From the UHGV virus genome UHGV-0021747: a stretch of DNA of 30,815 nt. One strand, 5' to 3'. This DNA comes from a virus. Of this stretch, positions 16,217 to 23,077 are shown in pieces. Position numbers and translations under genes: made by a program. The notes under the pieces are model-generated. The model did no database searches. It saw only the letters and a program-made list of their open reading frames with translations, and was not told the DNA's origin. Position 1 is the first letter of the stretch. Every line of letters starts with the position of its first letter.

Positions 16217-16510
16217 TTAGCTGCTGTCTTTTTTATATAGCTCTTTGAGCGTATCAAAGACAATTTTCTTTACCATATCGGATTGTTGTTCTGCCATACG
16301 CTCTGCATCGTCAATGTAAACTGATGCAGAGCTTTGTTTAGTCAATGATTCTTCAATCGCTGCAATTATCTCTGAGTTCAGCGACCTGTTATTCATCTTC
16401 GCACGCTGTTTAATTTTCGCGTGAAGTTCATGCGGAAGTCTCAAGTGAAACTGCGCCTCGTCGTATTTGCTGTACATCCTTGATGCCTCACCAGTTGGGT
16501 GGAATGGCAT
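16217..16510 (-). CDS. mnt: Mnt-like ribbon-helix-helix repressor (likely start at the internal Met, 16477)
   Basis: C-terminal half ...RSLNSEIIAAIEESL...DDAERMAEQQSDMVKKIVFDTLKELYKK matches P22 Mnt closely as recalled; the N-terminal DNA-recognition strand differs. Confidence 0.8.
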   Translation of the reverse strand: MPFHPTGEASRMYSKYDEAQFHLRLPHELHAKIKQRAKMNNRSLNSEIIAAIEESLTKQSSASVYIDDAERMAEQQSDMVKKIVFDTLKELYKKDSS

Positions 16511-16550
16511 CGTAACCTACTGGATAAATACTCAATAGTACCATTTCGGT

Positions 16551-16573
16551 ATGCAATCACATCATGGTTGCAT
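16551..16573. promoter_or_regulatory. Inverted repeat ATGCAA-N11-TTGCAT between mnt and tailspike; candidate operator
   Basis: Seen directly in the sequence; sits in the divergent mnt/tailspike intergenic region. Confidence 0.3.
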
Positions 16574-16598
16574 CATATCATTCGTCTGGAGCAATGAA

Positions 16599-17090
16599 AT
16601 GTCAGATATCACCGCAAATGTTGTGGTAAGCATGCCTTCGCAACTCTTCACTATGGCTCGTTCTTTTAAAGCCGTAGCCAATGGCAAAATTTATATCGGT
16701 AAAATTGGCACTGACCCGGTAAATCCTGAAAACCAGATTCAGGTTTATGTGGAAAACGAAGACGGTTCTCACGTTCCTGTTGCACAGCCAATCATCATTA
16801 ACGCTGGCGGGTATCCTGTATATAACGGACAGATTGCCAAATTCGTAACTGTGCAAGGCCATTCTATGGCTGTATACGATGCGTACGGTTCTCAGCAGTT
16901 CTATTTTCCGAATGTGCTGAAGTATGACCCTGACCAGTTTGAGCAAAGGTTCATGGATGAAATTAGTTCGCCAGACGGTTACAAAATAATAGGTGGGTTA
17001 GAGGTCAGGCTTTCTGTATACGATATAGCTGCTGCTGATGGTGAAAGAAATAGCGATCAGTTGAATTCTTTTTTTGCTGAGTTTAAATGA
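16599..17090 (+). CDS. Tailspike N-terminal head-binding domain, ending at an in-frame TGA
   Basis: [11 protein letters not shown]...[34 protein letters not shown]...[15 protein letters not shown]...NVLKYDPDQ matches the P22 gp9 N-terminal domain as recalled. GGAG Shine-Dalgarno 8 nt upstream of the ATG. Confidence 0.85.
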
Positions 17091-17096
17091 ACTCCA

Positions 17097-18845
17097 GTGA
17101 AAATCTACTCAACTATGCCACTGACTTTCACTATCGACAAAGAGACAACGTTATACGGAGATTTTGATCTCAGCAATTGCACGTTCAACCTGGCTGGCGG
17201 TAAGATTGTTTATGCTGATGAGAGAGACGCATCTACATACATTAAAGATTTTACACCATCAGCATATCCATTAAACGAGCTAACTTCCGCGCTAACATTT
17301 ACAGAGTCAACCACTGGATGGGATAATTCCTTAGTTAAGATGTCTGGTACTGAAATTGACTTGTACCGATTGCTTGGCAGCACTTTCACGCCAAAATACA
17401 AAGGTGAAGTTAACCTACTAACCAAAGGAAGTGATTTAGCGTATACATTTAAGAATACATACAACTCTTCACTTATCTGTACTTTATATAAGCTGCCTGT
17501 GCGAAGGACTGTCATTGTATTGCCTAAGTTATCAGGGACGTTTACTGGCACGGCTGTTGATATCAAAAGGTCTATGGTTGATGTAAGGGTTAATTATGAT
17601 AATACCTTAGGAGCAATACCCATCAACTCTGCAATTTTTGGTAGTAGTAATACATACGGTGTTAATTGGTATTTGTGCTCATCGGGGATGACACAACCTG
17701 ATTCTGAATCTCGCTACACATTGACTCTAGAGTTTACTCTGAAGCATTCTTTTTTTAGCACTGTTGTTGGGAAAGGGTGGCGTTCTATTGATGGTAATTA
17801 TAGCCGTGACACTGTGGTAAGAGATTGCACTGTTGATAGCTTCAATCTTCATTATGGATCGTCTAAGGTTTTGATAGACAATTGCAGGATAATTAATGGC
17901 GCGGCTTTTGGTACTGGCGCTTTTGATGAATCAACGCAGATTATAAACTCAGATATTGGTCCCTTTGGGATTCGCACTGACTATGGAGAGCATAAGGGGG
18001 ATTTTATTGTCAAAGGGGGTTCGGTAAGAATATCATCGGACAAAACTGGGCTTGTAGATCTCTTCACATGCAGGTGTGATAATGTTGTTTCCACTGGTAG
18101 CCCTGTTCAGCCTAGAGCATTAAATCTGCCAAAAAATGTAATTATATCTACAAATATCTACTGGCCTGACGCAGTCACACTTAACATTGTTTCATTTAAA
18201 AATAATTTTAAGACACAAAATAGCATTATTCGTGATTTCATTATGCCTGGCGTTATAGATTTCTCCGGAAGCACCTTTAATGGTAAAAATGCAAGATTTG
18301 AGTGGGCCATCTCTTACCATGATTCAACTTCCAGAGAAATATCAATAGTCAATCTGACACCTGCGAAATCAATTGTTTGTAAGGTTTTAGCTTATATTGG
18401 ATACCTGAATGAGTATGCATCATGCCTTTATGGTCTTGAGAGCAATATGGACATAACTTTCATGAACTTTACGTCTGGAATGTCTCGCAGCTATATTAGG
18501 CTGGAAGGTGGGGTGCTGCGCAGGTTTGTTGGTTACTCCGGAGGGACAACCTATATGTTAGGAAGCGTGTATTTTGATAAGTCGTTGATAGATTGGGATT
18601 CAAGCAATAACCTAGTTTCAGGACTTATGTCGGTGTCTGATTGCCTTATAGACGGAACGAGGGCCAAAGGAACATCGTCCAGTAAGCCTGTTGTAAATAC
18701 ATTCGTGCACAGATCTGCAAATAATATTTGCCATGAAATTATTGCTACAGACTCAAGGGATGTGGTTGATAAGAAGTTCGCTTTATGCAGCAGGGAAGGT
18801 GCAGCAGGCAACTTCTCTACAGGAGAAATACCTATCTCTTACTAA
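17097..18845 (+). CDS. Putative tailspike receptor-binding (beta-helix-like) module, in frame with 16599..17090 across one TGA
   Basis: Same frame as the upstream ORF; no Shine-Dalgarno before GTG 17097 or ATG 17115. AT-rich, Ser/Thr/Asn/Gly/Ile-rich composition typical of tailspike beta-helix domains. Confidence 0.55.
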   Translation: MKIYSTMPLTFTIDKETTLYGDFDLSNCTFNLAGGKIVYADERDASTYIKDFTPSAYPLNELTSALTFTESTTGWDNSLVKMSGTEIDLYRLLGSTFTPKYKGEVNLLTKGSDLAYTFKNTYNSSLICTLYKLPVRRTVIVLPKLSGTFTGTAVDIKRSMVDVRVNYDNTLGAIPINSAIFGSSNTYGVNWYLCSSGMTQPDSESRYTLTLEFTLKHSFFSTVVGKGWRSIDGNYSRDTVVRDCTVDSFNLHYGSSKVLIDNCRIINGAAFGTGAFDESTQIINSDIGPFGIRTDYGEHKGDFIVKGGSVRISSDKTGLVDLFTCRCDNVVSTGSPVQPRALNLPKNVIISTNIYWPDAVTLNIVSFKNNFKTQNSIIRDFIMPGVIDFSGSTFNGKNARFEWAISYHDSTSREISIVNLTPAKSIVCKVLAYIGYLNEYASCLYGLESNMDITFMNFTSGMSRSYIRLEGGVLRRFVGYSGGTTYMLGSVYFDKSLIDWDSSNNLVSGLMSVSDCLIDGTRAKGTSSSKPVVNTFVHRSANNICHEIIATDSRDVVDKKFALCSREGAAGNFSTGEIPISY

Positions 18846-18880: not shown

Positions 18881-20029
18881 TTACTTTGAAAAGATCGCGG
18901 CAAATCTATGGGAAACCTCGATGCTTTTTCTGTCGATGAGCAAATAAAAGATGTAAGAACATGCATAAAGCATCACCACTGATATTAAAACAGCTGATAA
19001 ACATGCGCTGGAGTCGCTCATGATTTTCCTTGATTCATGATAAACTGGCCCTGATAAGCAATAAAATACAGGCATTTGAATCAAGTATGCCGAGAATGAT
19101 AACTTTCCTAAAAAGACCATGATTTTTGATTCAGAAAACCATGACATAACCCCAATCTTACATAGGGAATATACCACTCCAATTCCAGATAATAGATTGA
19201 AAAGCAAGTATACATTTATTTTCTCAATGCTGTGAATAGATAATGAAAATTCTTTTAACCATGCGTAAAGATAATGATTATATTTAAATCCAGCCAAGTA
19301 AAGTGATGCAATAAGAATTGCATATCCAATAACCTTATTCTTATATGAACCGCATAAACATATAGCCATACCAAAAAGGAATGATGCGTACCCATATGCA
19401 TTTTTATCATTAAAGTTAATTATGATTAAAACTGCGATTAAAGATAATATTAGCGGTGCTTTTTTAATAAAGATAGAAATAGGAGATATCAAAAAGACAA
19501 GGAGAGAACCATAAAACTCAACCTGCATAGTCCATGTAACCATATTTATTGATGAGTCACCTTTGAGTATGGAGCCATATAGTGAGTTTTTTAAAACTCC
19601 TATCACAGATAAATCACCATCTTTACCCAATGACCAAATCCACGGAACCCAATACTTATTGAAAGGGAAGTAATTTACAACAATTGCGCAAATAATAATC
19701 GATGCCGAAACTGGTATTAATAATCTTACATACCTTTCTAGCAGCATCTTTGCGGACTTCTTAGATATACAACCAGACCTGAAAATAACACTTGTAAGTA
19801 TATATCCGCTTAATACAAAGAATATATATACAGCTGAAGTTCCAGAGTAAGTGAAGCCTATTGGTAAATCTCTTGTCACCGCATCAAAAGAAGACTTAAT
19901 TATCTTTGTGTCTCCAGTATGCAGGTAAGGGAAAAAAATTATTGATAGATGAGAAAGCACTACCATCAAGCAGGCCAACCCCCTCACACCCTCTACCGAA
20001 AGAACCTTGCCACCATCAATCTTATTCAT
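18881..20029 (-). CDS. Acyltransferase family 3 integral membrane protein (putative O-antigen/surface polysaccharide acyltransferase)
   Basis: 382 aa from ATG at 20029 (the supplied ORF extends to TTG at 20050). Multi-pass hydrophobic profile and an N-terminal ...GVRGLACLMVVLSHL motif typical of acyltransferase-3. Strongly AT-rich. Confidence 0.8.
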   Translation of the reverse strand: MNKIDGGKVLSVEGVRGLACLMVVLSHLSIIFFPYLHTGDTKIIKSSFDAVTRDLPIGFTYSGTSAVYIFFVLSGYILTSVIFRSGCISKKSAKMLLERYVRLLIPVSASIIICAIVVNYFPFNKYWVPWIWSLGKDGDLSVIGVLKNSLYGSILKGDSSINMVTWTMQVEFYGSLLVFLISPISIFIKKAPLILSLIAVLIIINFNDKNAYGYASFLFGMAICLCGSYKNKVIGYAILIASLYLAGFKYNHYLYAWLKEFSLSIHSIEKINVYLLFNLLSGIGVVYSLCKIGVMSWFSESKIMVFLGKLSFSAYLIQMPVFYCLSGPVYHESRKIMSDSSACLSAVLISVVMLYACSYIFYLLIDRKSIEVSHRFAAIFSK

Positions 20030-20192
20030 ATAATTTCCGTATATGCACAAAGTTAGTGTGCATTAATAAAAGATAATACCCCTACTTGCATAACAGATAG
20101 CACGTGTAACTAAACGCTGAGCAATCAGAGGTTTCCGTAATTATCTGAGTTTATCACTCAAATCTCTATTGATCGACACCACCGATCGACAA

Positions 20193-20212
20193 TGCTGTGT
20201 TCATATACAGTA
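20193..20212. promoter_or_regulatory. LexA (SOS) box tgCTGTgttcatatACAGta
   Basis: CTGT-N8-ACAG with flanks close to the E. coli consensus, 18 bp upstream of the umuD'-like ATG and just upstream of its GGAGG Shine-Dalgarno. Confidence 0.55.
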
Positions 20213-20229
20213 ACTACCGGAGGTGAGTT

Positions 20230-20621
20230 ATGGGATTACCGATCCCGGCTGCTGATTACGTTGAGAACCGCCTGTCGCTTGATGAGAGATTCATCCACAA
20301 ACCGTATGCTACCTACTACATGAAAGCGTCAGAGACAATCTATCGCTTCGGCATTATGAAAGATGCGCTGCTGGTCATCGACTCGTCGCTACCCACCCCC
20401 TGTGATGGCTCATTGCTGGTTTGTGAGTTTGTGAGATAGTGGGTGAGTTCAAGGTGAAGATTTACCGAACATATCCTCAGCTTCATCTTGAGAACGCACT
20501 GAACGGGCGAAAAGAAAAGTTGCCTTGTCACTTTGGCGGGATAGAGACGGTATTTGGGGTGATCACGTGCATCATCAACGATGCGCGTACAGGTGAGTTT
20601 GATGGCTACCCGCTGAAGTGA
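20230..20621 (+). pseudogene. umuD'/humD-like gene split by a frameshift (8-bp tandem duplication tttgtgag at 20420..20435)
   Basis: ORFs 20230..20439 and 20439..20621 together align with UmuD residues about 25 to 139 as recalled (PAADYVE..., GEFxVK, VFGVI). Deleting one repeat copy restores a single 129-aa frame. The GDSM catalytic motif is replaced by ETIY. Confidence 0.6.
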
Positions 20622-20630
20622 AAATAGTGT

Positions 20631-20928
20631 TGTGTACCAAATTGCGTACCAAACTAAAATCACAAATCATGAAACCCTTGTTCATGGCGGTTCTCAGGGG
20701 TATTGCGCGTAATCGTGAAAGAGGAAGGTAGGTTGTTTATCTGTGTCTGTCATTGTCTAGCATTGTCCACTGTAGTTAATTAACTGTCTGTTATAACTCG
20801 AAAAACAACCATTTTTTCACCTGAGTATGTCTACGAACGTCAAATATAGTTGTTTACTGTGCGCTGTTGTCCATGTGATATTGTGTACCAGATGTGTACC
20901 AAACCATTATTTCTGAGCGTACCAAATA
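20631..20928. other. Putative attP: five GTACCA(A/G)A arm-type repeats flanking a ~230-bp AT-rich core
   Basis: Repeats at 20634, 20647, 20885, 20896 and 20920, immediately upstream of int; typical of integrase arm sites. Confidence 0.45.
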
Positions 20929-20934
20929 TTATTT

Positions 20935-22113
20935 ATGGCTATAAGCGACACAAAACTGCGTACTATTTATGGTAAACCATATTCGGGCCCACAAGAAGTG
21001 GCTGATGCCGATGGCCTCAGCGTACGAATTTCACCGAAGGGGGTCATCCAGTTCCAGTACCGCTATCGCTGGCATGGCAAGCCTAATCGACTTGGGCTTG
21101 GTCGATACCCATCCCTGTCTTTGAAGGATGCCAGACAGATCACTGCTGACTTGCGAAAGCTCTATTTCTCAGGAACGGATCCACGCACCTATTTTGAAGA
21201 GAAGGTGGAGAACTCCATGACGGTCGCCCAGTGTCTCGACTACTGGTTCGACAACTACGTCTCTACAACTCTCAGAGAAAAGACCCAGGCACTTTACCGA
21301 TCAACGGTTATGAAGCGCATGCATGACGCCTTTCCTAATCGTCCGGCATCTTCTATCACGGTTAAGCAATGGGTTGACCTGCTTACCGAAGAAGAAAGAG
21401 ATAATCCACGCCGAGCAAGGCAGGTGCTAAGTCAACTAAGATCAGCAATAAGTTGGTGCATGCGGCGTCAGTTGATAGATAGTTGCGCAATTATGAGCAT
21501 CCAACCAAGGGACTTCGGCTCCCGCGCTGAGGTAGGGGATCGGGTACTGTCGTATCACGAACTGGCTAAGATTTGGCTTGCTATTGAAAGAAGCCGTGCG
21601 TCTACGTCAAATAAGCTCCTTCATCAGATGCTTATGCTGTGGGGGGCGAGGCTCTCAGAGCTTAGGCTGGCAACAAAGACAGAATTTGACCTGCTGGACA
21701 ACGTATGGACCGTACCGAAAGAGCATAGCAAGATGGGTAATGTTATCCGCCGTCCAATCTTCGAACAAATTAAGCCTTTTCTCGAAAAGGCCATGACAAC
21801 GTACAATGATGTTCTTTTCCCTGGAGAAGACATAAACAAACCGATCAGCATCGCTGCAGCCAACCGATTCGTAAATAGAATAAGGGGAGGGATGGATCTG
21901 GGTTACTGGCGAACACATGATTTCAGAAGAACGCTTGTTACACGTCTGTCCGAGATGAATGTCGAGCCTCATGTTACTGAGCGAATGCTCGGTCATGAAC
22001 TTGGCGGGATAATGTCCGTATACAATAAACACGACTGGATAGAGGCTCAGCGCAAAGCGTATGAGCTTCACGCTGATAAATTGTTCTGGCACATCAGGAG
22101 CATTTCTGATTAA
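20935..22113 (+). CDS. int: Tyrosine integrase (P4-like, N-terminal arm-binding domain)
   Basis: N-terminus ...DGLSVRISPKGVIQFQYRYRWHGKPNRLGLGRYPSLSLKDAR is the arm-type DNA-binding domain signature; C-terminus has HDFRRT...LGH...VYNKHDW catalytic motifs. Confidence 0.9.
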   Translation: MAISDTKLRTIYGKPYSGPQEVADADGLSVRISPKGVIQFQYRYRWHGKPNRLGLGRYPSLSLKDARQITADLRKLYFSGTDPRTYFEEKVENSMTVAQCLDYWFDNYVSTTLREKTQALYRSTVMKRMHDAFPNRPASSITVKQWVDLLTEEERDNPRRARQVLSQLRSAISWCMRRQLIDSCAIMSIQPRDFGSRAEVGDRVLSYHELAKIWLAIERSRASTSNKLLHQMLMLWGARLSELRLATKTEFDLLDNVWTVPKEHSKMGNVIRRPIFEQIKPFLEKAMTTYNDVLFPGEDINKPISIAAANRFVNRIRGGMDLGYWRTHDFRRTLVTRLSEMNVEPHVTERMLGHELGGIMSVYNKHDWIEAQRKAYELHADKLFWHIRSISD

Positions 22114-22718: not shown

Positions 22719-22776
22719 ATAAAACAAAACTCGCCGTAGCGAGTTCAGATAAAAGAAAACCCGCACTCGGCGGGTT
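22719..22776 (-). terminator. Two tandem rho-independent terminator candidates on the minus strand
   Basis: Hairpin aacccgc-N5-gcgggtt then U-tract (22745..22776), and hairpin actcgc-cgta-gcgagt then U-tract (22719..22744), as read on the minus strand. Confidence 0.5.
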
Positions 22777-23077
22777 CGCATTCGTTCAAATTGCGCTTAC
22801 TTCTTGGCGTTCTGTTCATCCATCTCGATATACCATGGTTGCTTCCCTTGGGCAGGTTTAACGACTGCTCGCGATAGTATCTGACGCGCTCCATGAAATA
22901 CTCGCGTGAGTGCTCAGGTTGCTCTCGTGCTACCTGCTCAGTGATAACAGGTATGTTAAGGCGCTCTCTGTACGCCACGCCTGATGCTGCAAGGTCAACG
23001 TTTGCCTTGTTCTGTTTTTCTTTCGATTGCTCGGCGATGTTATGCCTGGCATTGTCAACCCGCCTCCTTCTGAACAT
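22745..23077 (-). CDS. Hypothetical protein (110 aa)
   Basis: ORF in early-left orientation; weak ribosome-binding site, and the 3' end overlaps the terminator hairpin. Confidence 0.35.
   Translation of the reverse strand: MFRRRRVDNARHNIAEQSKEKQNKANVDLAASGVAYRERLNIPVITEQVAREQPEHSREYFMERVRYYREQSLNLPKGSNHGISRWMNRTPRSKRNLNECEPAECGFSFI

Follow-up and report, generated by a model that had tools for sequence, protein, structure and literature searches.

The question raised by the short region beside the attachment site of UHGV virus genome UHGV-0021747 is what has become of a umuD'-like gene, placed behind a LexA box, whose reading frame is broken by a short tandem duplication; that is, whether the gene is cargo caught in decay or, as the initial annotation also considered, a slippage-prone switch. 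The window analyzed here (the whole stretch of 30,815 nucleotides) belongs to a podophage of the P22/Sf6/HK620 type; its genes stand in the phage (non-integrated) order, and its virion genes are about 96-97% identical to those of Sf6, Gally, and HK620. The gene was described at the outset as adjoining attP, and this holds, given that the 'putative attP' of phage HK140 maps to 20591-20737 and the integrase gene of the same module starts at 20935 (Table 1). The attP core is probably located within 20708-20737, since the prophage attR-side match ends at 20737 and the attL-side match begins at 20708; past 20737, two of the contigs described below (L012 and L013) carry E. coli dacD DNA in place of the phage sequence.

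Table 1. Positions of the locus, its putative control elements, its neighbors in the window, and remnants of the same gene elsewhere (window coordinates unless another genome is named)
Feature	Position	Strand	Basis
Tail spike gene	17097-18845	+	local gene order
O-antigen-type acyltransferase gene (Acyl_transf_3), divergent from humD	18881-20029	-	local gene order
humD feature including the LexA box, between acyltransferase gene and attP	20193-20621	+	
Candidate sigma-70 promoter: TTGATC (20169-20174), 16-nt spacer, AATGCT (20191-20196)	20169-20196	+	inferred
Predicted LexA operator (SOS box), TGCTGTGTTCATATACAGTA	20193-20212	+	weight matrix, conservation, annotated P1 equivalent
Ribosome-binding site CCGGAGGTGA, core GGAGGTGA	20216-20225	+	read from the sequence, ahead of ATG 20230
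humD pseudogene, 5' part	20230-20439	+	ORF list; NF051876 positions 1-65, 94.5 bits
Perfect 8-bp tandem duplication, TTTGTGAG x2 (+8 nt frameshift)	20420-20435	+	exact copies at 20420-20427 and 20428-20435
humD pseudogene, 3' part (family residues 67-127)	20436-20621	+	NF051876 positions 68-128, 56.8 bits
attP region of an sbcB/dacD-site ('type 2851') integration module	20591-20737	.	HK140 'putative attP' mapped on the window
Tyrosine integrase gene, same module as attP	20935-22113	+	ORF list; Pfam Arm-DNA-bind_3 and Phage_integrase on the identical L004 gene
humD remnant, L013	3568-3900		
humD remnant, L012	equivalent position	reverse	
humD remnants, FM180578 (2851), KJ832078 (Sf101), NC_019715 (mEp234)			

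A HumD-family gene split by an 8-bp duplication

The frame is broken precisely as initially described, by two exact copies of an 8-mer that end just before position 20439. The upstream frame stops at the TAG at 20437-20439, so that its product is 69 aa long (family residues 1-66, an out-of-frame tail FVR, and the stop), and the downstream frame, which runs over 20439-20621, lies at -1 relative to it. Gene callers divide the locus into 'hypothetical proteins' of 69 aa and 55-60 aa, with no family hit on record. An opposite-strand ORF at 20340-20663 (107 aa) had no Pfam or PHROG match and was treated as spurious; its counterpart in phage Sf101 is annotated as a hypothetical protein, on the opposite strand across the humD remnant of that phage.

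When one copy of the 8-mer is removed, a single ORF of 127 aa results, not of 129 aa as first given. This restored protein matches the NCBIfam equivalog model NF051876, 'HumD family translesion DNA polymerase', with 162.8 bits (cutoff 120) over profile positions 1-128 of 129, whereas the two actual ORFs each stay under the cutoff when scored separately (Table 1). It also matches PHROG 811 'UmuD-like protein' (7.6e-39) and the solved UmuD' structure 1umu (E = 1.1e-13), is 56.6% identical to HumD of phages P1 and P7 (over the full length for P1), and shares 52-61% identity with the homologues of P1, P7, N15, phiKO2, HK140, and HK639 as a group. Aligning the restored sequence to the UmuD and HumD families thus bears out the proposed UmuD'/HumD assignment over its full length. 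The closest intact proteins among about 5.8 billion protein clusters are 127 aa long and 87% identical, from a P22-like prophage of Enterobacter hormaechei in which humD is likewise flanked by the tail-spike module and an integrase; no match to the restored protein above 87% identity was found in this collection.

The restored protein belongs with HumD rather than with UmuD proper, whose models it does not reach (PRK10276, 64.9 bits vs. a cutoff of 110; PF00717, 21.4 vs. 23.3). It has no N-terminal pro-segment and no Cys24-Gly25 cleavage site; instead, it begins Met1-Gly2, with Gly2 aligned to residue 1 of UmuD' (1umu), i.e., Gly25 of UmuD, at a start column common to all 114 homologues. The suggestion that the product starts at the glycine exposed by cleavage, as in P1 HumD, was therefore correct. 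With the duplication splitting the frame at 20437-20439, the locus is a pseudogene of this family, not a functional member.

The catalytic motif of UmuD deserves separate attention. The initial annotation read ETIY where GDSM would be expected, and both this sequence and the loss of the motif stand; what changes is the residue opposite the nucleophile Ser60. With the one-residue gap placed by HMMER and MAFFT, ETIY aligns as D-S-M-I, which sets Thr, and not Ile, against Ser60, so that the Ser-Lys dyad of UmuD proper is represented by Thr together with a retained Lys97. In 114 homologues plus UmuD, the Ser60 column holds Thr in 80% and Ser in 18%, with Ile in two sequences and Ala in one; Lys97 is kept in 91% of the 114 homologues, the Gly-Asp of GDSM is not conserved across them, and the motif is shorter by one residue. 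Since Thr at the nucleophile position is usual in the HumD family, ETIY is not part of the decay.

LexA box, regulatory region, and the surveyed family

Upstream of the gene, the reported near-consensus SOS box was confirmed: it has a CTGT-N8-ACAG core and, at 21.2 bits, is the top-scoring site of the window, above the maximum of 200 shuffles (19.6 bits) and central within the span of the genuine training sites (12.8-25.8 bits). The weight matrix was built on 21 E. coli LexA sites reported in the literature, by Lewis in 1994 and Fernandez de Henestrosa in 2000. The bare core by itself is not significant in the window (two matches vs. 0.44 expected, a count that 7 of 100 shuffles reach), and counting cores was replaced by the weight-matrix scan combined with conservation across loci. 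The box ends 17 nt, rather than 18, before the ATG at 20230.

Of the 37 genome loci that we surveyed, 32 are full-length; these come from Enterobacter, Citrobacter, Kluyvera, Yokenella, Scandinavium, Erwinia, E. coli, and others, and 31 of them have a LexA box that scores 19 bits or higher. In 22 of the 32, the box scores at least 21 bits and is found 14-43 nt before the ATG, the most frequent distance being the 17 nt of the window, and in nine further loci a conserved gene of about 79 aa abuts humD and the box (19-28.5 bits) lies ahead of this small gene. The one locus that matches over its full length but has no box (L044) is a broken one, and the 31 unbroken loci are single ORFs of 123-136 aa. 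It is this conservation across loci that provides the stronger argument for LexA control, more so than the score of the box; together with the box annotated in P1 (below), it supports the control proposed initially and suggests that LexA would bind at 20193-20212.

The small gene recurs directly upstream of humD in L001 (1946-2185, HK140 gp27), L016, L018, L019, L023, L029, L036, L040, and L041, with the LexA box 255-285 nt before humD in these loci. Its products follow the pattern MPRxxDI...NRYWILRNMGRVF or ...EGxNRTFxxxNPNGG and match no Pfam family; judging from sequence and position, it is an uncharacterized, predicted SOS-regulated and co-transcribed partner of HumD. A tblastn search for umuC, with E. 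coli UmuC as the query, had no match in the window or within 4 kb on either side of the 37 loci.

A sigma-70 promoter may overlap the operator. The candidate (TTGATC-16-AATGCT) has its -10 element on the left half of the LexA box and was not called by the consensus promoter scanner at its thresholds; what points to it is conservation, since the whole stretch 20169-20196 is kept in L002, L003, and L007, and the coding regions of L002 and L007 stand at dS 0.5-1.0 from the window. The ribosome-binding site is likewise kept in L002, L003, L007, and L013. Directly upstream of the box, a direct repeat, GATCGACA, occurs twice (20171-20178 and 20184-20191); it holds two Dam GATC sites and overlaps the candidate -35 element. 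The loci of E. hormaechei and E. coli A10 keep this repeat as GATCGAYA, that of E. coli LCP17S3 keeps it in part (second copy GATCAACA), and it possibly represents a methylation-sensitive or additional regulatory element.

Two other sites of the window should be mentioned here. The consensus scan found no promoter at the SOS box, and the only strong one that it called is a near-consensus, promoter-like TTGCCA-16-TATAAT (11/12) at 20007-20034 (+), which is directed at humD from about 160 nt upstream of the LexA box and extends over the region around the start codon of the divergent acyltransferase gene. The second-best LexA-like site, TACTGGATAAATACTCAATA (16518-16537, 15.5 bits), sits in the short gap between an Arc/Mnt-like repressor gene (16217-16510, -) and the tail-spike head-binding gene (16551-17090, +), and may be due to chance or be an immI-type operator.

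Among characterized systems, P1 HumD is one of the closest. Like the window gene, it is of the same length class (129 aa, vs. 127 aa here), has a Met-Gly start equivalent to UmuD Gly25, has no adjacent umuC, and is preceded by a LexA box 19 nt before the gene (vs. 17 nt here), which the P1 GenBank record describes as 'LexA binding site in the regulatory region of lxr and humD'. A note in the same record states that HumD functionally complements UmuD'. The window gene differs from it in being frameshifted, in carrying extra substitutions at conserved residues, and in its location, i.e., beside the attP of a P22-like podovirus as opposed to between lxr and phd/doc of a plasmid prophage. As a separate observation on gene content, a homologue of the DNA polymerase III theta subunit, like P1 Hot, is encoded some 2 kb away from the humD pseudogene (22745-23077, -; PF06440, 104.6 bits). 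Since hot adjoins lxr-humD in P1, this pairing of two accessory genes for replication/repair is seen again in phage types that are unrelated.

With E. coli UmuD/UmuD' (1umu, 1ay9, 1i4v, and 8gmt), the restored protein shares the S24-type fold domain (E = 1e-13), the N-terminal arm motif GFPSPAADY, and the equivalent of Lys97, whereas UmuD has a 24-residue pro-segment, the Cys24-Gly25 cleavage site, an intact GDSM, and an operon with umuC. The same family as the window gene includes HK140 gp28, HK639, N15 gp26, and phiKO2 gp23. The HK140 gene, like that of the window, immediately precedes an attP and an integrase of this type; unlike it, the HK140 gene is intact and follows a partner gene of about 79-84 aa in a two-gene unit controlled by a LexA box, and the two proteins are about 61% identical overall.

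Erosion of humD is not restricted to the window. About 7 of the 37 genome loci are fragmentary or broken, and in phages 2851, 1717, mEp234, Sf101, and several Stx phages residues 46-127 alone remain, unannotated, beside the same attP. More generally, remnants of residues ~46-127, some of them in two pieces, adjoin sbcB/dacD-type attP sites in many lambdoid, Stx, and P22-like phages (examples in Table 1). Independent inactivations also occur in close relatives: the prophage of E. coli LCP17S3_I1 (L003 3062-3446) has a 1-bp insertion and is annotated 'HumD family... frameshifted', and P0045 is a variant of 87 aa that diverges in sequence beyond ...YPQP.

Spread of the duplication and damage accumulated since

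The duplication is real. It aligns as an 8-nt gap in all relatives, which have no repeat at this site, and it is found in six further public contigs. Four of these, from ENA/Logan, encode precisely the 69-aa product; the three that were retrieved (L004, L005, and L006) are 99.90-100% identical to the window and carry the two-copy repeat, and the fourth is counted from its exact 69-aa product. A search of metagenomes with a pattern allowing one to three copies found two more contigs, L012 and L013, both two-copy and, from the tail spike to humD, 99.3-99.5% identical to the window. In both, the sequence crosses attR and continues as E. coli dacD (98-99% identical to strain A10), which makes them lysogens. 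Since the carriers are all of a single phage lineage, with identities of 99.3% or more, the six contigs represent one mutational event sampled repeatedly. Neither a single-copy nor a three-copy allele was found in the genome_contigs and viral_contigs collections, where the pattern scans were empty, or in the metagenomes with the one-to-three-copy pattern; that is, the search for the gene in related phages yielded the intact, 87%-identical E. hormaechei gene and no one-copy allele of this lineage.

The carriers do not share the same 3' end. From about position 20548 on, the window is 97.9% identical to HK140 at the DNA level (the last ~75 bp of coding sequence plus the attP arm), while upstream of this point the nearest relative is the Enterobacter-type humD (87% at the aa level). 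A recombination junction can be placed within the gene, at 20548-20621, and the C-terminus of the window, ...DGYPLK, has the ...YPLK ending that accompanies this type of attP in place of ...CPVM. L012 and L013 keep the native humD 3' end, followed by a second, degenerate humD remnant. Because they share the duplication with the window but have the native 3' end where the window is hybrid, the duplication predates the rearrangement.

Damage has continued to accumulate since. Between the window and L012/L013, three nonsynonymous differences and no synonymous one have arisen in the window since the split (S5I, D100G, and Y111C), at positions where L012/L013 retain the conserved Ser5, Asp100, and Tyr111; L012/L013, for their part, have a 1-nt indel in a C-run, which makes a second frameshift, and an early stop. 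Overall, the restored sequence departs from the consensus at seven columns with a conservation of 90% or more (F3L, S5I, a one-residue insertion unique to it, R75I, P82L, Y111C, and D123G) compared to a family median of two, and only 2 of 114 homologues depart at as many conserved columns as the window.

Whole-gene dN/dS against the closest intact gene is 0.117, a value at which no relaxation is visible and which indicates that purifying selection acted on the gene during most of its past and that its inactivation is fairly recent. The signal of relaxation emerged only when changes relative to the intact E. hormaechei gene were polarized onto branches with five outgroups: the window branch has 16 nonsynonymous and 13 synonymous changes vs. 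1 and 16 for the sister branch, whose gene is intact (Fisher p = 0.0011; p = 0.006 once the recombinant tail is dropped). The post-duplication excess of nonsynonymous changes identifies a decaying pseudogene and not a switch, which agrees with one of the two readings offered initially (cargo caught in decay, with damaging changes accruing after the duplication).

A probable recent inactivation and the alternatives

Taken together, the locus is very probably a decaying, LexA-controlled pseudogene of the HumD family that was inactivated by the 8-bp duplication. Under this reading, the ancestral unit would have consisted of a promoter, LexA operator, ribosome-binding site, and 127-aa ORF placed between the tail-spike/acyltransferase genes and attP of a P22/Sf6-like E. 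coli phage. In the intact unit, host LexA would repress the promoter overlapping the operator, and DNA damage, through RecA*-induced cleavage of LexA, would turn humD on. As the product is already in the UmuD' form, starting at the glycine that cleavage exposes, it would skip the slow RecA*-dependent self-cleavage and, by analogy with P1 HumD, the dimer could associate with host UmuC into a Pol V-like translesion polymerase. In this connection, P1 HumD was reportedly shown by McLenigan and colleagues in 1999 to substitute for UmuD' with host UmuC in SOS mutagenesis. Replication slippage would then have duplicated TTTGTGAG, shifting the frame after residue 66 and removing the C-terminal half; drift would have followed, and the 3' end would have been exchanged by recombination with an HK140-type attP module. 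Truncation after residue 66 takes away the strand with Lys97 and the rest of the C-terminal half, and function was therefore almost certainly lost. Since promoter, operator, and ribosome-binding site appear intact, the 69-aa fragment is probably still made upon SOS induction, and it is possible that it retains some residual role.

Alternatively, the two pieces might still be of use, either because translation terminates and reinitiates at the overlapping TAG and GTG (20437-20441) and the halves reassemble, or because a programmed -1 frameshift yields a full-length protein. The geometry is suggestive, as the stop codon and the GTG share one base (TAGTG), as in translational coupling, and the break (around D91-G92 of UmuD') falls between two predicted beta-strands, where split proteins sometimes complement. 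However, the 12-nt overlap in which recoding would have to occur (20425-20436, from the frame-B stop to the frame-A stop) has neither a slippery heptamer of the form X XXY YYZ nor a homopolymer run for transcriptional slippage, and only a weak GUGA Shine-Dalgarno element precedes the GTG. Further, S5I, D100G, and Y111C hit both halves after the duplication, which argues that neither is under selection, and no intact relative is arranged in this way, with all 31 unbroken loci being single ORFs. We therefore consider continued function in two pieces or by recoding to be very unlikely. A more specific version, in which the SOS-made 69-aa N-terminal and 60-aa C-terminal fragments reassemble as a split UmuD' mimic, or the N-terminal fragment (whose arm motif is altered to GLPIPAADY) serves as a decoy for Pol V or RecA*, appears more doubtful still.

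Just as improbable is the other possibility raised initially, i.e., a reversible contingency switch in which a copy of the 8-mer is gained or lost by slipped-strand mispairing, turning HumD on and off within the phage population. Reversion of a perfect tandem duplication by slippage is conceivable, the regulatory region is undamaged throughout, and GTGAG-like motifs are found close by at 20423-20427, 20431-20435, and 20444-20448. Nonetheless, the tract has just two copies of the 8-mer and no long repeat, all seven sequences either have two copies or encode the exact two-copy product with no other copy number found in the genome, viral, and metagenome collections, the restored protein is absent from the protein collection, and relatives do not have the repeat at this site. 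In addition, nonsynonymous changes at invariant residues followed the duplication, and the second frameshift and early stop of L012/L013 would be intolerable for a switch under selection for both of its states. Finally, that the true gene is one-copy and intact, and the duplication a sequencing or assembly artefact, is the least credible explanation even though the window is apparently a metagenome assembly, given that the duplication occurs in independent assemblies from at least five other samples and different pipelines (ENA scaffolds, Logan unitigs, and OGYE/OGWT contigs), that some carriers differ in downstream structure and have E. coli flanking DNA, that an 8-bp tandem duplication is atypical of short-read error, and that the extra lineage-specific damage fits a genuinely dead gene.

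What remains most probable, then, is the decaying pseudogene, and its significance should be seen in proportion. The HumD family has been described before, as have its LexA control and its function, and the locus adds one more inactivated copy to a curated family (NCBIfam HumD) characterized in P1, which by itself matters little. It does hold a lesson for annotation, in that gene callers turn such a pseudogene into 'hypothetical proteins', and it adds one small case to the record of how accessory 'moron' genes are gained and lost beside attP. More broadly, the near-universal LexA control of the surveyed loci, together with their lack of umuC and the repeated erosion at sbcB-type attP sites, suggests that the benefit a phage derives from a pre-activated UmuD' is conditional and often lost.
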